DNA of 64,000 bases, taken from NCBI GenBank assembly GCA_018651085.1, contig JABIEQ010000002.1, forward strand, positions 87,783 through 151,782, read 5' to 3'. The stretch comes from Candidatus Magasanikiibacteriota bacterium (GTDB lineage Bacteria; Patescibacteriota; Patescibacteriia; Magasanikbacterales; UBA922). The translations under genes and the position numbers were made by a program. The notes beneath the pieces were generated by a model. That model was not told the DNA's origin. It was given only the letters and a program-made list of their open reading frames with translations, and searched no databases. Positions within the stretch are counted from its first letter, which is position 1; each line of letters starts with the position of its first letter. Shown here piece after piece: positions 4,137 to 63,873 of this stretch.

Positions 4137-5294
4137 TTATTTTTTAAAACGATGGGCTTGGCTGTACTTACTATTATTTTGTGGAATAATATCTATTTTT
4201 ATTGATTTGAGTGCTTGAGTAATGTGTTCTTGGATTTCTTGTTGGTTTTGTAGGAATTGATTTTTTATAAAGGTGTTTTTTTCGTATTGATCTGTCTGCT
4301 TTTGTATTAATGTATCTAGTTTTGTGGAAGTATTTCTTTCAAATTCTATTTCTATTTCTTGAGATGTTCCTAATAGTTTGGGAGCAAAGGGTTTGCGTTG
4401 TGATAAAAATTGTAGATATTTTTTTCCGTCGTATACTCTGAATGTATCAAGAGATATGATAAAAGCTTGTTCTGGATTAGGCCCTGATCCCCAAGGGGAT
4501 GGAACATTTAGATGGATTCTTTCCCTTTCTGTTATAACCGCTACGGAAGGGGATAGTGCGATTTTTTGTATGTTGGGATCCTTTTTTTGCAGATATGCCA
4601 TGAGTTTTTGAGAAGGAAGGAGATGATATTGTTTGAATTTTCCTCGTTGTAGGTACGTTATGTAGGTTGTGATATCCCATGGTTGGTTTGGGGGAAGGTT
4701 GTTTTCGTTAAACGGGGTTGATTCTTTACGAAATTCAAATCGAGTTTCTTCTGTTTCACTTAATCCTGCATCTATGTGTGTACGGTTTATTTTTGTTTGA
4801 TATTCCATGCGAGATGGAAAAGATTTTGTATTCAGTGGATCGTTTAAATAAGAGGCAAATATGTTCTGGTTTTTAAATCTCTGTCTTAGTCTATAGAGTG
4901 CTTTATTATTGAACAGTGTATCGTCTTTTGTGTCAAAGTATATATCAAAAAAAATAGAAGAATTTGTGGACGTAGTTATATAGTATGCTTGGGATAATGC
5001 TTCTGGAGGATTGAAGTTATCTTTATCTATTTGTAGTTGCAGTTCTTTTTCAATATGTGCAATCATTTCTTTTGTGGAATATAAGGATGTTGATGGTGTT
5101 TGAATAGATAATTTAAATTCTCTTTCTATTCTTGAAGGAGTACCTGTTGCGGTTTTTTTTGTGATACTTATTGATGTAGTAATTTTGGAAGTGGGAATAC
5201 CAAAAATTGTGATTATAATAATAAGTAGTCCGATTGTACTTAAGATTAGGATGTGTTGGTATTTTCGACACAGGATTGGTATGGAAATTGTCAT
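4137..5294 (-). CDS. Membrane-anchored CYTH-domain protein
   Basis: N-terminal TM helix, then RIEREFKL (canonical CYTH ExExK signature); 385 aa. Confidence 0.45.
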   Translation of the reverse strand: MTISIPILCRKYQHILILSTIGLLIIIITIFGIPTSKITTSISITKKTATGTPSRIEREFKLSIQTPSTSLYSTKEMIAHIEKELQLQIDKDNFNPPEALSQAYYITTSTNSSIFFDIYFDTKDDTLFNNKALYRLRQRFKNQNIFASYLNDPLNTKSFPSRMEYQTKINRTHIDAGLSETEETRFEFRKESTPFNENNLPPNQPWDITTYITYLQRGKFKQYHLLPSQKLMAYLQKKDPNIQKIALSPSVAVITERERIHLNVPSPWGSGPNPEQAFIISLDTFRVYDGKKYLQFLSQRKPFAPKLLGTSQEIEIEFERNTSTKLDTLIQKQTDQYEKNTFIKNQFLQNQQEIQEHITQALKSIKIDIIPQNNSKYSQAHRFKK

Positions 5295-6967
5295 ATATTA
5301 TTTTTTTGTGGAGGTGAAAGTTTCCAAGGGTGTATACTTGTTGCATTTGTATTATCTGGACAGTTGTCATTTTTTTGGAGTGTTTGTAATACTTTATTTA
5401 TCGTGTTTTTGAATGTGATCGTAGAAATATTAATGTTTTCTGATAAGATGAATTGATAAGAAAGAGGAGCTGGGATTGCATGGGGAGGATTTGAGGTGTC
5501 TCTTCCTGGATAAAATATCATATTTTTATTTGAAGGAGAAAGAACCTCTTTTGATGTGACTTCTTCTCCTTTTGTTGTTATTATTGACGTGATTGTGTGA
5601 CTCGATACTCCGTTGACTTGTATAATGAGTTTTTGTCCTTTTTGCAAGAAACATAATTGTTCCTGTCCTATTTTTTTTGTAAATTCTGTTGATGAATTAT
5701 TAATACTTTTTTGTAATATTGTTATTTTTTCTTGCCAGATTTTTGGGGTTATTTTTTTGTATCGATAAAATGAGTAGTAGTCGTGTTTCTGTGTTGCTGC
5801 TAGAGTTTTTGTTATTTTAGATATTTCGTCGTTTATACTATCCGTGATTCCTGATGTTAATAGATTGTATATGTAGTTGTATTTTTGTTGTACAAAATAA
5901 GGATCTTTGTGAAGAAGAATAATTAGATCATTACTTATGATATCTAATTGAAATTCTCCTGTGTATGCGTTGTCTACGGTTCTTGTTAAAAATGTTGCAT
6001 CCCAGGGAATCTGTTGGAACTTTTGTATATCTTCATTGAAATACAATTTTACGTTATGTCTATTATCCCAATGTCTTATTTGGCCAATGTACATGAGTGC
6101 TCCTAGACGAATAAAGTATTCGTAATCAATAAGTGTTCTTAATTTTTTTATATCTTGTTTTTCAATAGCAAGAGATAGCTCATAGAGTTTTTGTTTGTGT
6201 TTTTCTTCTTGATCATGCGTAATACTATTTTCCCAAATAAAAGGTGCTCGAAATACAGAGGTTCCTATTCCTGGTTTTTTTGTAAAGGAAATATTTTCTG
6301 CTTCTAGGATACTTCCTAAGGGCAAATTTCTTCTTTGTAAAAAGGTATTGCGATCTATAGGTTCAGATACTTGGTATAGACCTAAAAATTTTTTGTTTAG
6401 GTATACGTTTGCAAAGGCATGATCAGGTACAATGAGATCGAGTTTTTTTCCGATAAATGATGTAATATACTCTCCAATTATTATAGACCCTTTTGGAGAG
6501 ATAACTTCAACTTGATCGGCATTAAATAATATGGGGGTGTTAGATTTTTCTGATCGTAGACGAAATGATTTTTTTGGGAATCGCCAATGATGATCAATGT
6601 CTCCGCGGAGTTTTATAAGAGATTTTATGGGTGATTTTTCATCTATTTGAATGGTTGCCCCATCGTAAAATTGTTTTTTTCCAGATATAGGAAGATCATT
6701 ATATATTTGTTTAAGTGTATCTTTTTGTGTCTGTATAGATAGAGTATAGATAGAAGATAGATCTTCTTTTTTTACGAGGGCTGATTGGATACTTGCAATG
6801 ATCGTTCTTGTTACTTGATAGTGCGGTTTTGTAATTTGGTCATTTCCATAGTTAAATGGTGTTATATTGAGATCTCTTGTCGTAAATGATATTTCAGCTA
6901 TACTAAGAAGTAATATGGCACTTGCTGCTATTATAAGGAATAAATATGTCATTTTTTTTGTGTACAT
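5291..6967 (-). CDS. cotH: CotH-family atypical protein kinase-like protein, secreted (signal peptide)
   Basis: N-terminal signal peptide MTYLFLIIAASAILLLSIAEI; central block IPWDATFLTRT resembling the CotH PWD(L)D motif; 558 aa, typical CotH size. Confidence 0.55.
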   Translation of the reverse strand: MYTKKMTYLFLIIAASAILLLSIAEISFTTRDLNITPFNYGNDQITKPHYQVTRTIIASIQSALVKKEDLSSIYTLSIQTQKDTLKQIYNDLPISGKKQFYDGATIQIDEKSPIKSLIKLRGDIDHHWRFPKKSFRLRSEKSNTPILFNADQVEVISPKGSIIIGEYITSFIGKKLDLIVPDHAFANVYLNKKFLGLYQVSEPIDRNTFLQRRNLPLGSILEAENISFTKKPGIGTSVFRAPFIWENSITHDQEEKHKQKLYELSLAIEKQDIKKLRTLIDYEYFIRLGALMYIGQIRHWDNRHNVKLYFNEDIQKFQQIPWDATFLTRTVDNAYTGEFQLDIISNDLIILLHKDPYFVQQKYNYIYNLLTSGITDSINDEISKITKTLAATQKHDYYSFYRYKKITPKIWQEKITILQKSINNSSTEFTKKIGQEQLCFLQKGQKLIIQVNGVSSHTITSIITTKGEEVTSKEVLSPSNKNMIFYPGRDTSNPPHAIPAPLSYQFILSENINISTITFKNTINKVLQTLQKNDNCPDNTNATSIHPWKLSPPQKNNI

Positions 6968-6969
6968 AC

Positions 6970-7902
6970 TTAGTGTTCACGAGGTTTAAAAGATATGTCT
7001 ATTTCGATAGACTCAATTTTTGAAGAAAGTTTCATTGAAGGACTTCTCAGATGAGGACTGACGCCATCAATAATGAATGCTGTTGGAGTTCGTGTTAGGT
7101 TACGTGGTTCCCATTCATCAAATGATTTGAATGTAATTATTTCTTCATTTTCTAAGTGTAAGACTATTGATGCAATGGTGAATGTTGTGCCTGTGCCTGG
7201 ATTTTCAAATGGTGATAAATAGATGTACTTTGGTGGATTTACAATATCTGGATGGGATTTAATAATGAGTCTTTTTTTGTGGAATGTATTGTTTATTGGA
7301 GCGTAAATGGGCTTTTGTGTGCTTTGTGTAGAAAATATGTGTGCTTTGTCTGCTAAATAAAATTGAATAGATGTATCTGTTTCTGGGTATGTTGCTGATA
7401 TGTTTTTTATATAGGATGCTTGTTTAATATCTCCTTTTTTTTCTGTTATTTTTATGAGTTGATTAGTAAGGTAGGTGTTTTTTGGTTGGATGTTCCATGC
7501 GTTAAAGTATGCCTCATAAGCTTTTTTTGTGTCTGGTATAAGTAAATAACAGTCTCCAAGAAGTGTAAAATACTCGTAGTTTTGATTCCAGAAGGAAATA
7601 AGTTCTTTAGTATATTTTATGCATTGTTCAGCATTTTTTTGATTTAAGAAAAATTGTGATAAATACGTATATGCTTTTATTTTAGAACTTGCAAAAATAT
7701 GTCGTTCTTGTGTTGCTGGATGATTTGCAATAAATGTTTGTAATGCTTGGGGGTTATCATGAATAATTTCTACTTGATTTTCTAATGCTTGTATTTTTTT
7801 TCCTTTGTATGCTAAAATTACATCATTAATTATGAAAAATATTTTTATTCCTATTAGAATAATTAGTATAGTAATTATTATATTTTTTAAAAAACTTATC
7901 AT
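6970..7902 (-). CDS. Membrane-anchored TPR-like repeat protein
   Basis: N-terminal TM helix; TPR-like segments (YEYFTLLGDCYLL...KKAYEAYFNAW); first gene of the minus-strand cluster. Confidence 0.4.
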   Translation of the reverse strand: MISFLKNIIITILIILIGIKIFFIINDVILAYKGKKIQALENQVEIIHDNPQALQTFIANHPATQERHIFASSKIKAYTYLSQFFLNQKNAEQCIKYTKELISFWNQNYEYFTLLGDCYLLIPDTKKAYEAYFNAWNIQPKNTYLTNQLIKITEKKGDIKQASYIKNISATYPETDTSIQFYLADKAHIFSTQSTQKPIYAPINNTFHKKRLIIKSHPDIVNPPKYIYLSPFENPGTGTTFTIASIVLHLENEEIITFKSFDEWEPRNLTRTPTAFIIDGVSPHLRSPSMKLSSKIESIEIDISFKPREH

Positions 7903-7912
7903 AATGTAGTTT

Positions 7913-10591
7913 ATGTCTTTTTATAAACATCGTAAGAATACATATATTCTTGTAATGGGTATATTTTTAATTGTCACTAGTTTATTACATAGTGGAGTTC
8001 GTGACAACCTTTTTAAAATTTATCAAGTTGGTGCACTTCATCTATCTCCTAGCAGTTGTACTGTTTTTCATAGTGCTGGGTATTGTGGTGCTCCTGGAGG
8101 GGATACTGATCCACCAGCTATTTCTTCTATTAAATTTGATGGAGTTTTGCAAGGGTCAGTCGGGACTTTGACATCTTCAACTGGTGTTATTGAAATTGTT
8201 CTTACTGAAGGTGAAACGGCTTTTGGTGCTGATTGTGCTAGTAATTTAAGTAATGTGAAGGTGAAGGCGGACACTGCCGGTACTCTTATAAGTGAGGGAT
8301 CAGGAATTAGTGAAATAGGGGGAGTTGGTGGTGCTCTAACGTGTACTTGGACTGGGACTTACACCATTAGTGCTGGCACTTCTGATACAGGCGCTTTTGT
8401 GGAAATTGGTACTATTCAAGATGATGCTATTATACCTAATTCTGCATCTAATCAATCAGGTGCAGGTACCTTTGCGGTAAGTATTCCTTCTGGAAATACG
8501 GTTCCAACGGTAAGCGCTATAACGCCGTCACAGACTACAGGATCTATTGTGGCATTTTCTCCAACAGTGGCTGATAGCGATAGCGATGTTACGAATCTTA
8601 TTGTTGAGCATTCTATTGATGGTATTACTTGGACTTCTAGTACATTATTTGTGGTTACTGAAACAGAAGGAGTTGATGGTGTTACTACGTCTACTGGAAA
8701 TATTGCTGATATTGATACTGATAATGATGGTTCAGTCACTTTTACGACAATTCAATGGGATGCTGGGACGGATCTTCCCAATACAGAGGATAGTAGTGTG
8801 TTTTTACGGGCTACTCCGAATGATGGTACGTTAAATGGATCTTCAGCTACGTCTAGTGCATTTGTGCTTGATACGAAAGATCCTACGGCTCCAGGTAATC
8901 TAACTATTGCGAATACCTCTACTACCGCTGTTACGTTTACATATGGTACGGTATCGACTGATGATAATTTTGTGGATTATCGTATTTTTTATAAAGAAGG
9001 TTCTTCTGGCGTCACTACAAGCGATACTTCTTTTACTTCTACAACGGACAGTAATTTGGGAAGTATTAGTTTTAGTTCAGCGACTACTTCAACAATATCA
9101 AGTCTTAGTCTTAATACCCAGTATGTAGCTAACATTTGGGCTTTTGATGGATTTGCTCATTCTACTGCTGCAAGCTCTGAAATTGCATTTTATACTCTTG
9201 CTGCTGCCCCTGGTACGCCAACTATCTCAAGTGTTGGAGAAACTAGCATGAGTTTTACGTTTGCTGGAGAATCTAATCCTACTACGACGGTTCATTCTAT
9301 TTTTGATACAAATGCTGGTCTTTATGTTGCTGCTGATAATGATCTTGACGCAACTACTGCTATATTTCAAACTACTTCTACATGGAGTACACCAACTATT
9401 TCTGGATTGTCCTTAAATACACAATATTGTTTTGGAACATTAGCTAGAAATGGAGATAATATTGAAACAGCGACAACAACTGCAGCGTGTGCGTATACGT
9501 TAGCTGCTGGGCCTGGTTCTGTTACTACCGATATTTTATCCAGTAAGATTACTGTCTCTTGGAATGTAAATGGTAATCCATCTGGTACGGAGTTTTATGC
9601 TTCTATTAGTTCAGGTGGCTCTTGTGGCTGGTCTGCTGATCTTACGACGTGTACGTTTACAGGTTTATCCCAATATACTTCTTATGTGATCACTGTGAAA
9701 TCTCGTAATGGGGATACTATTGAAGCTGTCGCTGGTGCTCTTACACTAAGAACTCTTGCTTCTGGAGGAAGTACACCGACTGCTTCTACTCCTTCTTTGG
9801 GTGGATTATTTAATGGATCAAGGGACTTTAAAGCTGTTGTCATTAATGATGGAGAATCAGAAACTGATTTATTAGACCTTCAATTAACTCTTAAGGCAAC
9901 AAATGTTACGCATATCGCTGTTGCTATTGATGGACTGTTTAACGATGTCTCTTTTGAACCTTTTTCTGAAGAGACTTCTTTTCGTATACCTGTTGATGTC
10001 TCTGGTGATAAACTTGTTTGTGTGAGGTTCCGTGCTTTTGGAGGTGGTACTTCTGATGTCTGTGATTCTATCAAATATGTTAAAAAACAGACACAAAGTT
10101 TGTCTACGTCTGATCCTGAAATACAAGAAGCTGTAAAGGATAAAGAAGTTGTTTCTGAGTTGTTTGATGATGGTTGTCCACTTGTTCGTCAAAAACCATA
10201 TAGGGTCGGAGGTACCAAAGGGGTGTATTATATTACTGTTGAATGTACTAAGCGTATATTTACGAGTCCAGATATATACTTTTCTTATTTTAGATCTTGG
10301 GACGAAATATCTGTGGTTACTCTTGATCAGTTGTCGTTTGTTGAGTATGATTCTTTTTTATATGTTCCTTGGGGACCGTTTAGTTCTCTTTCGAATCATT
10401 CTTTTGTAAATGTGCTTGGAAGTTCAAAAATCTATTTTATTCTTGAAAAAAATCGGCATTTGATTTCTTCTCCTGAAGCGTTGAAAATATTACGTTCACC
10501 GTTTGAGATAATTCATGTTGTAGGTCAATCTTTTTTAGATTTGTATTTTGACGAAGATATTATTTTAGAAAATCATTCCGGACTTTTTTAG
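7913..10591 (+). CDS. Large Thr/Ser-rich cell-surface protein with fibronectin-III-like repeats
   Basis: 892 aa; N-terminal TM/signal; repeated blocks YTLAAAPGTPTISSVGETSMSFTF / YTLAAGPGSVTTDILSSKITVSW typical of Fn3 domains; about 30% Thr+Ser. Confidence 0.55.
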   Translation: MSFYKHRKNTYILVMGIFLIVTSLLHSGVRDNLFKIYQVGALHLSPSSCTVFHSAGYCGAPGGDTDPPAISSIKFDGVLQGSVGTLTSSTGVIEIVLTEGETAFGADCASNLSNVKVKADTAGTLISEGSGISEIGGVGGALTCTWTGTYTISAGTSDTGAFVEIGTIQDDAIIPNSASNQSGAGTFAVSIPSGNTVPTVSAITPSQTTGSIVAFSPTVADSDSDVTNLIVEHSIDGITWTSSTLFVVTETEGVDGVTTSTGNIADIDTDNDGSVTFTTIQWDAGTDLPNTEDSSVFLRATPNDGTLNGSSATSSAFVLDTKDPTAPGNLTIANTSTTAVTFTYGTVSTDDNFVDYRIFYKEGSSGVTTSDTSFTSTTDSNLGSISFSSATTSTISSLSLNTQYVANIWAFDGFAHSTAASSEIAFYTLAAAPGTPTISSVGETSMSFTFAGESNPTTTVHSIFDTNAGLYVAADNDLDATTAIFQTTSTWSTPTISGLSLNTQYCFGTLARNGDNIETATTTAACAYTLAAGPGSVTTDILSSKITVSWNVNGNPSGTEFYASISSGGSCGWSADLTTCTFTGLSQYTSYVITVKSRNGDTIEAVAGALTLRTLASGGSTPTASTPSLGGLFNGSRDFKAVVINDGESETDLLDLQLTLKATNVTHIAVAIDGLFNDVSFEPFSEETSFRIPVDVSGDKLVCVRFRAFGGGTSDVCDSIKYVKKQTQSLSTSDPEIQEAVKDKEVVSELFDDGCPLVRQKPYRVGGTKGVYYITVECTKRIFTSPDIYFSYFRSWDEISVVTLDQLSFVEYDSFLYVPWGPFSSLSNHSFVNVLGSSKIYFILEKNRHLISSPEALKILRSPFEIIHVVGQSFLDLYFDEDIILENHSGLF

Positions 10592-10732: not shown

Positions 10733-11107
10733 TCACTCCCACCAGCGTAGTACTGTTGCTGCAATGGGGACGATAAGGAGAAGCGCTTCGATGACGATGA
10801 TGCCCATGAAGGCCAGCGTGATATCGAAGGTTTTGTTTCTTTGCTGGCTGCTTTTCTCGACGCTGTCTTTCCAGTCAGTGGCAACTTGTTGCTTGGCTGA
10901 CGGGAGCATCTTTATGTGGATTTCTCCACTAAGATTTCGGCTCAGGGCTTCCTTTCTTCTGCCGAGCATTTCTCTGAATATCTTCCAGGATTTTCCTCCG
11001 AAGAGAATATTCTGGATGATAGCCACCATGATGGTGACGAGTAAGAGGATCAGAATGGGAAATTGATATTCCCCAGCGAGGAGCACAGCACCTTGAAGCG
11101 TTTTCAT
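10733..11107 (-). CDS. Small two-TM membrane protein in a GC-enriched gene, driven by a consensus promoter
   Basis: 124 aa; TM helices at N and C termini; consensus TTGACA-N17-TATATT promoter upstream on the minus strand. Confidence 0.45.
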   Translation of the reverse strand: MKTLQGAVLLAGEYQFPILILLLVTIMVAIIQNILFGGKSWKIFREMLGRRKEALSRNLSGEIHIKMLPSAKQQVATDWKDSVEKSSQQRNKTFDITLAFMGIIVIEALLLIVPIAATVLRWWE

Positions 11108-57127: not shown

Positions 57128-58846
57128 ATGGCAACATTTATAGAGCTGGGTCTCAACCCAGCCATTCTTCAGGCGCTTACTGACCTTGGGTTTAGTGAAC
57201 CAACGCCTATTCAACAAAAGAGTATTCCTCATATTTTAACGAATACTCAAGACCTTATTGCCTTTGCTCAGACGGGTACAGGAAAAACGGCAGCATTTTG
57301 TTTGCCGGTTATTCATAATATTGATGAGACATCAAACGAGGTACAAGCCCTTGTTCTTTGCCCTACACGGGAATTGTGTCTTCAAATTACTAAAGACATT
57401 ACGTCTTTTACAAAGCATATGCCAAATGTTGGTGTTGTTGCAGTGTACGGGGGAGACCCAGTATATAAACAACTCCAAGCATTAAAGAAAAAACCGCAAA
57501 TTGTTGTGGGTACTCCGGGTCGTGTTGCTGACTTTGTTCGAAAAAACAAAGTTGATTTTAGTACAGTTCGTTTTGCTATTCTTGACGAAGCTGATGAAAT
57601 GTTGAACATGGGATTTAAAGAAGAGCTTGATCAAATCTTGGGAGCTACTCCTAAAGATAAGCAAACACTTCTTTTTTCTGCAACCATGCCAAAAACTGTT
57701 GATCGTATTGCGAAAAAATACATGAACAATCCTTTAGAAATTTCTGTTGCAGGTAGAAATCAAGGAGCTTCTAACGTGAGCCATGTGTATTATCAAGCGC
57801 ATCCACGTGATAGGTATCATGTGCTTCGCCGTATTGTAGATATGAATTCTGATATGTATGGTATCGTATTTTGTCGAACAAGAAACGATTGTAAGGAACT
57901 TGTGACAAAGCTTGTAGGAGATAGTTATGCAGCTGAAGCTATTCATGGGGAATTAGATCAAAATCAACGAGAAAAGGTTATGACTCGTTTTCGTAAGCAA
58001 AAAACTAAGTTGCTTATTGCAACGGATGTTGCTGCTCGTGGTATTGATGTAAAAAATCTTACACATGTTATCAATTTTGCTCTTCCTGATCAACTTGAAA
58101 GTTATGTTCATAGAAGTGGAAGAACTGGTCGAGCTGGAAATGATGGTGTATCAATTGCTTTTGTCTCAAATCGAGAACTTCGAAGTATTGGTACTCTTGA
58201 GCGACATATGAATAAAAAATTTGAACGTGGAATGATTCCAACGGGAGAAGATGTATGTAAAAAACAGCTTTTTGAGCTTATTGAAAAAGTGAAAGCCGTT
58301 GATGTTGATGAGTCACACATTGATACATATCTTGAAGAAGTATATGAAAAATTGTCTCATTTTGACCGTGAAACTATTATTAAAAACTTTGTATCTTTAG
58401 AATTTAGTCGCGTGTTATCTTTTTATAAAGGTGCAAGAGACTTGAATGGCTCACAATCATCAAGACGAGATGATCGATCAGTGGGAAATAAAGATTTAAA
58501 AACCCTTAAGGTAAATTTAGGAAAAAAAGATGCCTTTAAGGTTGTTGACTTGTTTGGACTTTTAAATCGGCATAGAAAGTTAAAGGGAGCAAAAGTTGGA
58601 AATATTCATATCCAAGAATCAAGTACGTTATTTGAAATTGATCAATCTCTTGTAAATGAGATTTTGATTTGTTTTAATAAGGCGCATTTTAATAGACGAA
58701 AAGTGATTGTTGGGGAAGGTGAACAGATTCAACGATATGCCCCTTCTCGTGAGCGATCACGTCATAGTCGTGGATCTTCTCGACGACGTGCAACAAGCCC
58801 TTCTCGTACCCGTGGAAATTATAAACAATCACGCGGACGACGATAA
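57128..58846 (+). CDS. deaD: DEAD-box ATP-dependent RNA helicase with DbpA-like C-terminal domain and R/S-rich tail
   Basis: Q motif, AQTGTGKT, DEAD, SAT, HRSGRTGRAG. Confidence 0.93.
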   Translation: MATFIELGLNPAILQALTDLGFSEPTPIQQKSIPHILTNTQDLIAFAQTGTGKTAAFCLPVIHNIDETSNEVQALVLCPTRELCLQITKDITSFTKHMPNVGVVAVYGGDPVYKQLQALKKKPQIVVGTPGRVADFVRKNKVDFSTVRFAILDEADEMLNMGFKEELDQILGATPKDKQTLLFSATMPKTVDRIAKKYMNNPLEISVAGRNQGASNVSHVYYQAHPRDRYHVLRRIVDMNSDMYGIVFCRTRNDCKELVTKLVGDSYAAEAIHGELDQNQREKVMTRFRKQKTKLLIATDVAARGIDVKNLTHVINFALPDQLESYVHRSGRTGRAGNDGVSIAFVSNRELRSIGTLERHMNKKFERGMIPTGEDVCKKQLFELIEKVKAVDVDESHIDTYLEEVYEKLSHFDRETIIKNFVSLEFSRVLSFYKGARDLNGSQSSRRDDRSVGNKDLKTLKVNLGKKDAFKVVDLFGLLNRHRKLKGAKVGNIHIQESSTLFEIDQSLVNEILICFNKAHFNRRKVIVGEGEQIQRYAPSRERSRHSRGSSRRRATSPSRTRGNYKQSRGRR

Positions 58847-58863
58847 AACATTTTATTTTTTAA

Positions 58864-58891
58864 AAGCCCTACATCATGTAGGGCTTTTTTT
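58864..58891 (+). terminator. Rho-independent terminator after deaD
   Basis: aagccctacatcatgtagggctt-TTTTTTT. Confidence 0.6.
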
Positions 58892-58963
58892 ATATTTGAC
58901 TGATATGTTATGTTTGTGTTAATTTATGGTTTCTTGTTCTTTCATGCTTAACGGAGGGTAAAG

Positions 58964-59398
58964 ATGCAACATTGTCCAAAATGCGCTGGGAACGTCTTGT
59001 TTGATGAATCATCAAGTGAGTGGTGGTGTTTCCACTGTGATTCTGATGGACTTAAAGGGAAGCCTGGGGTGAAGGCTTCTTCTTCTGTCGCAGAGGTCAA
59101 GTCCAGACTTGCTGCGGTGGAGTTCCAAAACCCAACGGGCAATTGGAGCTACGAAGGAGCCTACTCGGTTGAACTGACCGATCGCGCTGACATGAGCGTC
59201 GCCCCCGTGGGCAGTGAATTCCTCAAGATCGAGGGGAATCGAGTCGTCATCAGTGAAGGGCGCGCCATGCAGGGGATGGGAGGCATTCAGCTTTACGTGG
59301 AGGAATATCCCTTTTTTTTGGGATACGTCTGCCTCAAGTGCATTCGTAGAGGAGACGGCTTTCTCCTTTGGAAGAACAACAACTACGACAACATGTAG
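58964..59398 (+). CDS. Hypothetical zinc-ribbon protein in a GC-rich island (horizontal-acquisition candidate)
   Basis: strong SD GGAGGG 6 nt before the ATG; CPKC...CFHC N-terminal zinc ribbon; local GC clearly above the flanks. Confidence 0.45.
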   Translation: MQHCPKCAGNVLFDESSSEWWCFHCDSDGLKGKPGVKASSSVAEVKSRLAAVEFQNPTGNWSYEGAYSVELTDRADMSVAPVGSEFLKIEGNRVVISEGRAMQGMGGIQLYVEEYPFFLGYVCLKCIRRGDGFLLWKNNNYDNM

Positions 59399-59473
59399 GA
59401 GGACGCTGTGAAAAATTCACGAGCACCACCCTGAGAGAACGTGTTTCACGATTCAATCGGGGGACATAAAAAA

Positions 59474-59498
59474 TAACCGAATAATCGGTTATTTTTTA
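59474..59498 (+). terminator. Terminator after the zinc-ribbon ORF
   Basis: aaccgaataatcggtt-TTTTTT. Confidence 0.55.
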
Positions 59499-59526
59499 TT
59501 GACAAAAACTTTTTTTATGATATAAT
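59499..59526 (+). promoter_or_regulatory. Strong promoter with extended -10 (TTGACA-N16-TGaTATAAT)
   Basis: ttgacaaaaactttttttatgatataat seen directly. Confidence 0.5.
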
Positions 59527-59534
59527 TTTGTTTT

Positions 59535-59960
59535 CTACTTTCTTATACCAACCTGCGGAGAATAATGGAACTCTTGCTTCTTTCGACAGATCGCGTTCCT
59601 TCGAAGTCACATATGACAGTATCTACGGTTCAGCCTCCTGAGGAGAGGAATACCCAAAATGAAGAGGTTGTACGAACCTCGACCATTGTGGGGGAGCCGA
59701 TTCGCCGATCGTACTGGTGTCTGCTTGCAGAGGCCATCAATCGCGGTATGGAGTAGTCCGGCTTTGGACGCTAAACTGAGTGTTGCGGAAACCTTTTCCC
59801 GTGTCCTAACCATTCTGGTTAGTTGATAAAGAAGGTGCGGTCGCTGAGTATCAAGTGACCCTGACATGACCATAGGTCTGCTCTTCCCACACATCGTGGG
59901 TAGAATGGCAAGGTTGTGTCGGGGAGAGTATAAAAATCATCTTATATAGGTGGTTTTTTG
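59535..59960 (+). ncRNA. Promoter-to-terminator transcript of ~420 nt, GC-enriched, open on both strands. Either a small ORF (59565-59756, 63 aa, GGAG SD) with a long 3' region or a structured ncRNA. Identity unresolved.
   Basis: defined by the promoter at 59499 and the hairpin at 59974-59993; contains GGAGUAGUCCGGCU and GGUGCGGUCGCUGAG, which resemble RNase P CR-I/CR-II, but no P4 partner was found. Confidence 0.3.
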
Positions 59961-59965
59961 TTGTA

Positions 59966-59996
59966 TAAAAAAAGACACCGTTTGAACGGTGTCTCG
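59966..59996 (-). terminator. Terminator for the minus-strand small ORF (9-bp perfect stem, T-run on minus). A degenerate copy recurs at 60315-60343.
   Basis: plus aaaaaaa-gacaccgtt-tgaa-aacggtgtc. Confidence 0.5.
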
Positions 59997-60026
59997 TTTA
60001 TAGGACTGATGGTACGGTATTAAAAC

Positions 60027-60212
60027 TTATTTTTTAAACCAAGCAACAAGTACATAGGTCCAAAATACTATGAACCCTAGCCAAAAAAGCCAGGAATAAT
60101 TTATTAGAGCATCTGCAAATTGAATTCCAACAGCAATACCAAGACACAGTCCACCCCAACCAATAACCTTTAGCTCCCACCATTTCCAAGTTGTTTGTTT
60201 AAAAAGGTTCAT
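60027..60212 (-). CDS. Small two-TM membrane protein (61 aa)
   Basis: ORF track; hydrophobic helices; own terminator. Confidence 0.3.
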   Translation of the reverse strand: MNLFKQTTWKWWELKVIGWGGLCLGIAVGIQFADALINYSWLFWLGFIVFWTYVLVAWFKK

Positions 60213-60314
60213 ATTATTTAGGCTAAATAAATTATATATAAACTATACCATAATTTAAAATTTTAAATAGATCCCTTATCTTCTTTATTTAGTAGAGAGG
60301 ATTAAGGAATAGAA

Positions 60315-60343
60315 AAAGACACCCTTTGAAAGGCGTCTCGTTT
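60315..60343 (-). terminator. Terminator of tRNA-Asp (a copy of the 59966-59996 element)
   Basis: minus-strand reading gagacgcctttcaaagggtgtc-TTTTTC. Confidence 0.5.
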
Positions 60344-60344
60344 G

Positions 60345-60418
60345 CGGACCGGACGGGATTCGAACCCGCAACTTCCGCCGTGACAGGGCGGTGCTCTAGC
60401 CAATTGAACTACCGGTCC
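60345..60418 (-). tRNA. tRNA-Asp (GTC)
   Basis: reverse complement GGACCGGTAGTTCAATTGGCTAGAGCACCGCCCTGTCACGGCGGAAGTTGCGGGTTCGAATCCCGTCCGGTCCG. Confidence 0.85.
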
Positions 60419-62339: not shown

Positions 62340-62960
62340 ACTGGTTTTCCATCTTATGACTCAAGGGGGAGGTTATGGATACTTTGTGGTGTGTTTCGAC
62401 AAAGGTGTCTTCGGGAGCGTTGCTGTTCATCGGTTCGGTGACTACCTATGGTGGTCCTACTCCACGTTCGCTTGCAGGAGTGGAGGTCTCGGATACTTCT
62501 GTTGGCCTCATCACTCATAGTCTGGCTGGGGTAGAGGCCTTTCTCATTCATCATGGTCAGGAGCTTGATGATGAAAGTCGGGATCTTTGTTTCGATCAGC
62601 TGTCCCGACGGCCTTGGGCGTACGGAATGCACTTGCCGGACCGGGACACTTCGATCACTGATCCGTTCGCAGCCTCTTTGTGGGCACAGTTCCTTCTCCT
62701 GATGGGACGTGCGCCTCAATTTTCGAAGGGGGCAGTTCGTTTGCCTACGGAGATTCTTTCGATTCTCAGTCTGGCCGATGCGATGCATCTTGGCACGGCT
62801 AATCGACAGGTTCTGTGGAAGCTGGCGCTGTCGTCTTTGCTTGTGGAGCCGCCGGACTTCGATCAAGAGACTGTGATCATGGGGCTCTGAAGATGGATCA
62901 AAGGGGGAGGCCGCTTGCGTTTTCGTATTGCGGCCACTCCTCGTAGAGATGTTATAACAA
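62340..62960 (+). ncRNA. About 620-nt GC-rich (~50%) structured-RNA candidate, open on both strands. The sub-region 62513-62885 has RNase P RNA-like features (rnpB candidate).
   Basis: P3-like hairpin CAUCAUGG...UGAUGAUG immediately 5' of GAAAGUCGGGAUC (CR-I-like); GCCGGACUUCGAUC (CR-IV-like) 270 nt downstream; 9-bp enclosing helix UCAUAGUCU/AGACUGUGA; ends at the bidirectional terminator 62971-63010. Confidence 0.35.
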
Positions 62961-63423: not shown

Positions 63424-63873
63424 TTATTGGTGTTCTTTCATGATTCTCGCTGTTTCTCGTTTCTGCTCACGTGTTTTGATGCTTTGTCGTTTATCGTATT
63501 TCTTTTTTCCTTTAACAATAGCAACTTCCACCTTAATATGGCGACCCTTAGTATATACTGATAATGGGACAATTGTCAATCCTTTTTCCTCTATTTTTCC
63601 CCTTAAATAAGCAATTTCTTTTTTATGAAAGAGGAGTGTTCTACTCCTCGTTGGTTCATATTCGCCTTTAAGGTTTGCAAACTTATATGGTGCAATATGC
63701 GCATTTGTAAGCATGGGGGTCTCTTTATGAAATGTGACATATGATCCTTTGAGGTTTATTTGACCGTCTCTTACAGATTTTACCTCTTGCCCAGAGAGCA
63801 TTAAGCCGGCCTCAAGGGTTTTGAGGACTTCATAGTCGTGAAATACTTTTTTATTTTTTGCGTATGTAGGCAT
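63424..63873 (-). CDS. smpB: SsrA-binding protein SmpB
   Basis: KKVFHDYEVLKTLEAGLMLSGQEVKSVRDGQINLKGSYV... Confidence 0.9.
   Translation of the reverse strand: MPTYAKNKKVFHDYEVLKTLEAGLMLSGQEVKSVRDGQINLKGSYVTFHKETPMLTNAHIAPYKFANLKGEYEPTRSRTLLFHKKEIAYLRGKIEEKGLTIVPLSVYTKGRHIKVEVAIVKGKKKYDKRQSIKTREQKRETARIMKEHQ

Follow-up and report, generated by a model that had tools for sequence, protein, structure and literature searches.

The question raised by this locus is what a GC-rich stretch of about 1 kb behind the deaD gene of a Candidatus Magasanikiibacteriota bacterium encodes, and in particular whether its second half gives rise to a protein or to a non-coding RNA. The stretch lies in a piece of 64,000 nucleotides (nt) (contig JABIEQ010000002.1, positions 87,783 to 151,782 of the forward strand), which is called the window here and whose first letter is position 1 of all coordinates unless another locus is named. 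The window contains a 16S gene, five tRNAs and one tmRNA, and its source is a small-genome bacterium of the Candidate Phyla Radiation (CPR). Bacteria of this group are uncultured, and their repertoire of non-coding RNAs is poorly charted. An initial annotation, made from the sequence alone, had divided the island into a zinc-ribbon open reading frame (ORF) and, behind a terminator, a strongly promoted transcript of about 420 nt with either an ORF of 63 amino acids (aa) or a non-coding RNA in it. The most fitting description of the region is that of a small imported islet at a tRNA gene, comprising a real gene for a hypothetical protein, a candidate module around a short peptide ending in Arg-x-Pro-Pro (RxPP), and an orphan, probably non-coding unit (Table 1). 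These elements belong to known kinds and do not represent a new one.

The rise in GC content was confirmed by exact computation and the profile is not even. Segments of 300 nt reach 0.543 (59000-59299), 0.537 (59100-59399) and 0.510 (59600-59899) in the island, compared with a mean of 0.374 (standard deviation 0.046) for the whole window, which places the island about 3-4 standard deviations above the mean and is not due to chance. The drop to 0.397 at 59300-59599 corresponds to the AT-rich terminator and promoter. Elsewhere in the window, segments with a GC content of 0.47 or more are confined to the 16S gene, a tRNA-Ser pair and two islets at 10.7 kb and 62.3-62.8 kb. Overlapping ORFs are found on both strands of the island, as had been described. 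The host uses the standard genetic code, as the 45 long host-like ORFs of the window stop at TAA (33), TAG (8) or TGA (4). The GC content at third codon positions (GC3) has a host median of 0.23 (0.19-0.29 in the host genes compared), and the giant ORF upstream of the island and deaD show codon-position GC contents of 0.51-0.54/0.37/0.19-0.21. The suspicion of foreign DNA is borne out for the zinc-ribbon ORF, whose GC3 is 0.60 overall and 0.67 in its conserved domain (codon-position GC 0.55/0.38/0.67). As the GC of this first half is concentrated at third codon positions, its excess reflects foreign codon usage and not RNA structure, and the idea that GC-richness marks a structured RNA fails for this part.

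The second half begins with the promoter that the initial annotation had called near-perfect, and this proved to be exceptional. TTGACA (59499-59504), a 16-nt spacer and TATAAT (59521-59526) with an extended -10 TG (59518-59519) match the consensus at 12 of 12 positions, the single match of this quality in 64 kb. Consensus promoters in this genome mark mostly stable-RNA and translation genes: most of the fifteen promoters with 11 of 12 matching positions precede such genes, namely 16S, tRNA-Asn, tRNA-Leu, tRNA-Ser, tmRNA, IF3 and an ORF before L20. The downstream end is likewise found about where it had been placed, with an 11-bp hairpin (59932-59958) and a terminator (59972-59995), so that the unit measures about 430 nt. 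The terminator is bidirectional and also ends a convergent gene for a 61-aa protein.

The non-coding reading of this unit is favored because of the single 12/12 promoter with TG, the flat codon-position GC, the orphan and disordered nature of its 63-aa ORF and the difference in folding between the strands. The GC content by codon position is 0.46-0.49 in every frame across the unit, i.e., there is no period of three, in contrast to the GC3 of 0.60-0.67 in the zinc-ribbon ORF. The 63-aa ORF matched only itself among 5.8 billion protein clusters, and its AlphaFold2 single-sequence model is mostly disordered with one short helix (predicted local distance difference test (pLDDT) 64, predicted template modelling score (pTM) 0.24). 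The predicted minimum free energy of the unit is -145.5 kcal/mol, with a z-score of -3.1 on the plus strand versus -2.0 on the minus strand, and in the predicted fold the 5′ end pairs with a segment just before the terminal hairpin. The unit thus appears better read as an RNA than as a 63-aa protein. From its signals and the lack of a coding signature, both directly visible, we infer that the unit is transcribed, structured and functional, and the probability that it is a non-coding RNA of the islet is put at roughly 0.45-0.5. Such an RNA is not a housekeeping RNA, as the nearest relative lacks the unit at this site. If real, the transcript would add an RNA class to the CPR together with a candidate RNA-protein pair; if not, the region would merely be an ordinary patch of imported DNA beside a tRNA gene.

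Several observations pull the other way. Folding energy decides nothing, as the genuine tmRNA of the window (z-score -1.9) and two mRNAs, those of the zinc-ribbon ORF (-2.2) and of a 171-aa ORF (ORF171; -1.9), are not separated by this measure. Contigs as long as 863 kb carry identical copies of the island. At each of the 12 loci of this species that extend into the unit, its sequence is 100% identical throughout (contigs of this species, including cluster variants, are 99.94-100% identical overall), and as every copy found is identical, covariation gives no evidence for any structure of the unit. Database searches returned no relatives either: a blastn search of the unit against phage and plasmid records gave a single chance match of 32 nt, IMG/VR contained no match to the two long ORFs of the unit (scanned as back-translated peptides) or to a 19-mer, and nhmmer searches of the island against 91, later 99 and 121 loci returned same-species copies and the mini-ORF module described below only. 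The GC excess of the unit may have been inherited from the donor of the neighboring gene and not result from selection for structure. Finally, a GGAG motif 4 nt upstream of the ATG of the 63-aa ORF speaks for a protein.

This last point is the core of the alternative in which the unit serves as an mRNA and encodes a small orphan protein, through either the 63-aa ORF or an overlapping 55-aa ORF (59659-59826), with a long structured 3′ untranslated region behind it. The start codon would lie about 30 nt past the predicted transcription start, and a 63-aa gene was called by some automated annotations (loci L004 and L007). However, the lack of any match but the identical sequence and the poor model mentioned above argue against such a protein, as does the codon-position GC of this ORF (0.56/0.44/0.53), which together with the flat profile of the whole unit is unlike that of the host genes and of the imported neighbor. 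By inspection, its SD sequence and ATG are possibly enclosed by a short local stem, and in a compact genome one would hardly expect about 200 nt of non-coding tail. An mRNA is therefore considered unlikely. That the unit represents non-functional remains of imported DNA, for example a decayed gene, with incidental promoter and terminator signals, is doubtful. It adjoins a clearly imported gene, has a similar overall GC content and found no relatives in the searches, and promoter-like sites with 9 of 12 matching positions barely exceed the number in shuffled sequences (10 versus 7.5 expected). Yet the only 12/12 promoter with TG in 64 kb stands exactly behind the terminator of the preceding transcript, and the unit is closed by a hairpin. 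Furthermore, a comparison by tblastx and in six frames of the island with the two loci that carry homologues of the C-terminal domain of the zinc-ribbon protein, the only related loci, revealed nothing in common downstream and no decayed gene, and none of the three ORFs tested scored above threshold in Pfam. It also counts against mere remains that a stretch of 430 nt without function is seldom retained in reduced genomes of this type.

If the unit is a non-coding RNA as preferred here, it does not fall into an established family. Rfam 15 (4227 models) was run with gathering thresholds on the whole window and, at E ≤ 10 with permissive filters, on segments of 1201 nt and 446 nt, in both cases on both strands. 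No gathering-score match was obtained in the unit or elsewhere in the island. At E ≤ 10 only terminator-like noise appeared, the best in the unit being Phe_leader over the 3′ hairpin (20.8 bits, gathering threshold 55, E 1.2). ARAGORN found no tRNA-like element in the island.

The one family discussed in the initial annotation was RNase P RNA, of which short CR-I- and CR-II-like strings but no P4 partner had been seen. A strongly diverged RNase P RNA would agree with the length of the unit, its strong promoter and its paired ends, and two short CR-I-like strings (GAGGAAUACCC and GGAGUAGUCCGG) can be found by inspection. Diverged forms do occur in the CPR: in about 10 of 35 closed genomes the RNase P RNA lay below the Rfam cut-offs and was found with lowered thresholds (PMC8172020). 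However, the three RNase P models (RF00010, RF00011 and RF00373) gave no match at their gathering thresholds anywhere in the window and none at E ≤ 10 in either the 1201-nt or the 446-nt segment, the latter in searches that listed other models down to 11.8 bits. The only partner for GAGGAAUACCC is GGGUA at about 59897, which lies 5′ of the 3′ strands of both closing helices (P2/P1). These two strands are only 4 nt apart, leaving no J2/4-CR-V segment, so that the layout is nested and has no P4 pseudoknot; CR-IV and CR-V are likewise missing, unlike in bacterial RNase P RNAs including the diverged forms. The absence of the unit at this position in the nearest relative would be unexpected for an essential gene, though this point is not decisive. 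With neither a covariance-model score at E ≤ 10 nor the P4 topology, RNase P was rejected and is regarded as extremely improbable, and the earlier doubt is upheld by both Rfam and the inspected topology.

Further RNA identities were considered and dropped. The reverse complement of ACCACCCU resembles the T-box core, but there is no Rfam match and the context is wrong. An integron attC site has no match to the core site, and a CsrB-like sponge was discarded with 9 GGA motifs compared with about 7 expected. Group II intron domain V was considered and dropped as well.

Table 1. Predicted features between deaD and tRNA-Asp, with window positions and the basis of each call.
Feature	Position	Strand	Basis
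deaD intrinsic terminator, left edge of the block	58862-58888	+	12-bp stem, then T run
SD sequence GGAGGG (58953-58958) and 144-aa ORF (58964-59398)	58953-59398	+	putative zinc-ribbon N-terminus (CxxC-N14-CxxC), all-beta C-terminal domain
Translationally coupled mini-ORF	59398-59434	+	sequence reading, same layout in L097
Conserved hairpin over last Pro codon and UGA stop	59429-59462	+	nhmmer, consensus fold
Intrinsic terminator of ORF and mini-ORF transcript	59466-59499	+	perfect 15-bp inverted repeat, then T run
Consensus sigma-70 promoter, extended -10	59499-59526	+	12/12 match with TG
Promoter-to-terminator unit, ~430 nt, ~48% GC	59533-59962	+	signals, codon-position GC
63-aa ORF	59565-59756	+	GGAG 4 nt before ATG
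3′ end of unit: 11-bp A/U-rich hairpin (59932-59958), then bidirectional terminator (59972-59995)	59932-59999		-25.5 kcal/mol, z-score -6.0
Gene for 61-aa two-helix hydrophobic protein, convergent with the unit	60027-60212	-	GC3 0.27, host-like
Right copy of 35-nt repeat, terminator of tRNA-Asp, right edge of the block	60309-60343	-	sequence repeat
tRNA-Asp(GTC)	60344-60418	-	tRNA prediction

The protein-coding part of the island could be settled more firmly. The Shine-Dalgarno (SD) sequence of the zinc-ribbon ORF is convincing as claimed, but the distance between GGAGGG and the ATG is 5 nt and not 6 nt. The product indeed contains the motifs CPKC and CFHC, with 14 residues between them (CxxC-N14-CxxC), although Pfam zinc-ribbon models stayed below threshold on this N-terminus (E 0.006 and 0.19). 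Residues ~48-144 form a conserved, uncharacterised all-beta domain of about 90-95 residues. Among the 5.8 billion protein clusters the identical protein and two distant homologues (49% and 39% identity) were found, both of which align to the C-terminal two-thirds of the protein only. A profile of these three sequences retrieved 181 cluster representatives with E-values up to 0.001, and for 88 of these the value was 1e-10 or lower. Members of this family are mostly stand-alone proteins of 80-100 residues with the pattern FxNPxGxW-Y-G...VELT...MGGIQ-Y...PF-WGY...LLW-N. The AlphaFold2 model of the 144-aa protein reaches a pLDDT of 96-98 in the C-terminal domain and of 53-58 in the zinc-ribbon part. 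As judged from the 181 related representatives and the confident domain model, the ORF is a real gene, and the earlier call of a genuine gene with a proper SD sequence holds, with homology limited to the C-terminal domain. It also looks imported, as its GC3 of 0.60-0.67 stands against the host median and those homologues that could be placed lie on higher-GC contigs, beside Fic and Mrr genes or a HigB/HigA-like pair.

The domain gave no match in Pfam, NCBIfam, PHROGs, PADLOC or the PDB, and it was not found in phage records, plasmid records or IMG/VR. None of the homologues found shares the CxxC N-terminus. Fusion partners and tail matches of the profile search were PKD/Ig repeat proteins and were judged to be noise. 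With its 181 clusters and no name, this family of about 90 residues is a small addition to the domains of unknown function. In GenBank the gene is given as a 133-aa protein (MBT3418758.1 and others) starting at an internal TTG, by which the first CxxC knuckle is lost; judged by the GGAGGG 5 nt upstream, the ATG at 58964 is the better start. A second locus of the same species (L092) differs from the window at 5 positions in 8.4 kb, 4 of which (59017, 59024, 59029 and 59050) fall within 34 nt of the zinc-ribbon coding part. All four are changes to G and the coverage of L092 is low (~5x), and the cluster could be an assembly error or a hypervariable patch.

Behind this gene the terminator announced by the initial annotation is present as a perfect 15-bp inverted repeat, and between the two lies a module that may be a more tractable result than the RNA unit itself. 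An SD sequence, GGAGGA, overlaps the stop codon of the zinc-ribbon ORF, with TAG running directly into GAGGA, and 4 nt after it a GTG (59408) opens a mini-ORF with the product MKNSRAPP and the stop TGA (59432-59434). A counterpart is present in another species, in locus L097 at 7476-7575, which is the same sequence as L098 1274-1373. There, TAG is directly followed by GAG, an ATG stands 10 nt past the stop with GGAG 6 nt before it, and the product is MHTREPP. In both species the mini-ORF starts about 10 nt past the upstream stop and the frame ends with CCA CCC TGA. The layout and its conservation in the second species can thus be read directly from the two sequences.

The nucleotide conservation extends beyond the peptide. 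In nhmmer, 59392-59528 aligns with the L097/L098 segment at E 5.6e-6. The last proline codon and the stop are part of a hairpin in which CCCUGA pairs with UCGGGG around an inner CGUG/CACG stem; in its consensus fold 11 of 11 pairs are kept, one of them by a compensatory change, at predicted energies of -16.4 and -17.4 kcal/mol in the two species. The stem of the adjoining terminator is maintained in L097 via three compensatory changes. For the whole module, RNAalifold kept all 23 pairs, four with compensatory changes and none broken, with energies of -39.7 and -39.1 kcal/mol and z-scores of -5.75 and -3.4 in the species of the window and of L097, respectively. The two sequences differ by a 1-nt indel directly after the UGA and have no common downstream reading frame, which means that conservation downstream of the UGA is at the nucleotide level and not protein-coding. 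The genes around the module differ as well: upstream ORFs are unrelated (the zinc-ribbon protein in the window, a GC-rich 196-aa membrane protein in L097), and the module is followed by the RNA unit in the window and by an MGMT-like gene and deaD in L097.

The peptide endings suggest what the module may do. According to the literature, RxPP is a minimal motif that suffices to arrest translation and that bacterial proteomes avoid (PMC10951233), and small proteins with RAPP-like endings are encoded upstream of a variety of genes (PMC12992588). In the long host-like ORFs of the window the motif is absent (0 in 16,406 residues, 1.4 expected), while in both the window and L097 it forms the C-terminal end of a short ORF that has a translation start of its own. 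As both mini-ORF peptides end with this arrest-sufficient and proteome-avoided motif, the module is considered a candidate for a 3′ element of the arrest-peptide type that is coupled to the gene before it. A ribosome ending the zinc-ribbon ORF would meet the SD sequence overlapping the stop and restart on the 8-codon frame ending Arg-Ala-Pro-Pro-UGA, and the RxPP peptide may then stall the ribosome and tune mRNA fate or termination. Like the described arrest peptides ApdA and ApdP (PMC10951233, PMC12992588), the short ORF of the window ends with Arg-x-Pro-Pro (RAPP in the window, REPP in the relative), lies upstream of another transcription unit and carries a motif otherwise absent from the local proteome sample. 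Unlike them, the peptides of 7-8 residues have no signal or membrane segment, whereas protein localisation is monitored by the ApdA/ApdP-type examples, which are small and either secretory or membrane proteins; in addition, the Pro-Pro-UGA lies inside a conserved hairpin with a terminator directly behind it.

Some results speak against this role. A covariance model of the module found no third copy, so that it is known from two species only, and a metagenome scan with the mini-ORF/hairpin pattern gave 17 matches, all of them chance occurrences inside high-GC coding DNA. Moreover, no convincing candidate was found for another pairing in competition with the 15-bp terminator. A stricter pattern had zero matches in IMG/VR, and two further DeaD relatives (53-58% identical) showed neither synteny nor the module.

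If true, the module would represent arrest-peptide regulation in a minimal form of 7-8 codons, tied by coupling to the end of the gene before it and held within a hairpin-terminator. To our knowledge, arrest-peptide control of this kind has not been described in this phylum.

Two other readings of the module were dropped. GAGCACCxCCCTG resembles the D/anticodon arm of tRNA-Asp, but a decayed tRNA fragment lacks anticodon-stem pairing and the likeness fades in L097. SECIS-like recoding or +1 frameshifting at CCC-UGA does not agree with the 1-nt indel after the UGA and the missing common frame. In L097 the module lies at the 3′ end of an extra block of about 3.3 kb (4300-7590) with GC-elevated ORFs of 51, 140, 90, 48, 206 and 196 aa, none of which had a family match, between PPDK and the MGMT-like gene plus deaD. 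In a further locus, L096, deaD follows directly after PPDK (7671-8001).

The whole block between deaD and tRNA-Asp has the appearance of an insert specific to this lineage and placed next to the 3′ end of the tRNA gene, as far as can be judged from a comparison of loci. The distance from the deaD stop to tRNA-Asp is 1497 nt in the window (58846 to 60344) and 147 nt in L098, which is the same sequence as the end of L097. In L098 the deaD stop is followed by a terminator, a spacer of about 65 nt, a minus-strand terminator and the 3′ part of tRNA-Asp(GTC), of which 53 nt are present, with one mismatch to the window copy; the tRNA-Asp terminator comes within about 100 nt of that of deaD. DeaD of L098 is among the nearest non-self DeaD proteins, which are 72% identical, and some proteins in the tier after these are annotated as Peregrinibacteria. 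The extra ~1.35 kb in the window hold the zinc-ribbon ORF, the mini-ORF module, the 430-nt unit and the convergent 61-aa gene. Insertion in the lineage of the window is favored over deletion in the lineage of L098 because of the foreign codon usage of the ORF; a deletion is formally conceivable. In L096, deaD is followed by different genes, showing that synteny is fluid here.

With its location at a tRNA 3′ end, its absence from the site in the relative and its atypical composition, the block shows features of a tRNA-adjacent element. Like other islets at tRNA or tmRNA 3′ ends it lies directly downstream of tRNA-Asp and has a GC3 of 0.60-0.67 compared with 0.23, and the window contains another GC3-rich ORF directly at the 3′ end of the tmRNA gene. 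Against an insertion, no integrase-sized ORF is present in the block, no copy of the tRNA-Asp 3′ end was found in 58840-60300, and in a DeaD scan of the genome collection the relatives among the matches listed were at most 50% identical and did not include the own species. The block thus differs from typical islets in having neither an integrase nor a duplicated tRNA 3′ end, it is only ~1.35 kb long, and its only direct repeat brackets nothing but the 61-aa gene. This 35-nt repeat (59965-59999 and 60309-60343, 89% identity) consists of two minus-strand terminators, one at the tRNA-Asp 3′ end and the other ending the 61-aa gene. Between deaD and tRNA-Asp of L098 there are two copies of the first 9 nt of the tRNA-Asp 3′ end (GCGGACCGG), at a distance of 100 nt from each other (L098 3601-3609 and 3703-3711), which looks like the scar of an earlier integration or excision at this tRNA.

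The arrangement of the unit and the 61-aa gene brings up a further alternative for the unit, that of a type I antitoxin whose toxin is the convergent 61-aa protein. The pair bsrG/SR4 is reportedly such a system, with convergent transcripts that overlap at their 3′ ends. The likeness is that, in an accessory block, a candidate non-coding RNA with a strong promoter faces a convergent gene for a small membrane protein with two helices, that one bidirectional terminator is common to both, and that both lie within the block absent from the relative. However, the overlap of the transcripts is at most the terminator of about 35 nt, and further complementarity amounts to an 8-nt exact core in a 15-nt stretch at 80%. 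At 430 nt the unit has two to four times the usual length of an antitoxin, the 61-aa gene is host-like in GC3 while the unit is GC-rich, and the 61-aa protein matches no family at all, including no toxin family. A type I antitoxin is thus quite unlikely.

The preferred picture, a block of four modules (an imported gene, its 3′ module, an independent transcription unit and a convergent membrane-protein gene) in a reduced CPR genome, is given about an even chance. In this model the imported gene encodes a putative zinc-ribbon protein with an all-beta C-terminal domain of an uncharacterised family. The independent unit, which starts from the window's best promoter and has hairpins at its end, would produce a non-coding RNA of about 430 nt with paired ends, and the convergent gene would yield a small two-helix membrane protein. 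The RNA is preferably seen as a stable, abundant RNA of the islet; it could partner the neighboring small proteins or act in an antisense-like manner on the convergent membrane-protein gene. A partnership with the adjacent small beta-barrel protein could be imagined from their adjacency and from a structural match of the domain model to Sm-fold proteins, which was below significance; the other family members examined had no such RNA alongside. OLE RNA and its ribonucleoprotein (PMC7936274) offer an analogy in architecture only, i.e., a GC-rich unit of several hundred nucleotides in an AT-rich genome next to genes for a small beta-rich and a membrane protein. Unlike OLE, the unit has no cross-species conservation, and it shares neither sequence nor covariance-model similarity with OLE or any other Rfam family. 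That the unit founds a new class of structured RNA, as part of a mobile ribonucleoprotein with the zinc-ribbon/beta-barrel and perhaps the membrane protein, with the RxPP mini-ORF as a new kind of 3′ element insulating its expression from that of the protein gene, is very unlikely.

Two more GC-rich islets were noticed in the window. A 124-aa GC3-rich ORF with two predicted membrane helices (10733-11107, minus strand; codon-position GC 0.51/0.35/0.58) lies behind an 11/12 promoter with TG (11211-11183) and has no family match. ORF171 (62375-62890, plus strand), also without a family match, has a GC3 of 0.55 and the SD sequence GGGGGAGG and is located between the IF3 gene and the tmRNA 3′ end; it is probably another imported islet at a tmRNA/tRNA end. 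The tmRNA itself probably has a promoter of its own within smpB, since the 3′ portion of the smpB coding region contains an 11/12 promoter (63550-63579, minus strand), located some 136 nt before the tmRNA gene.

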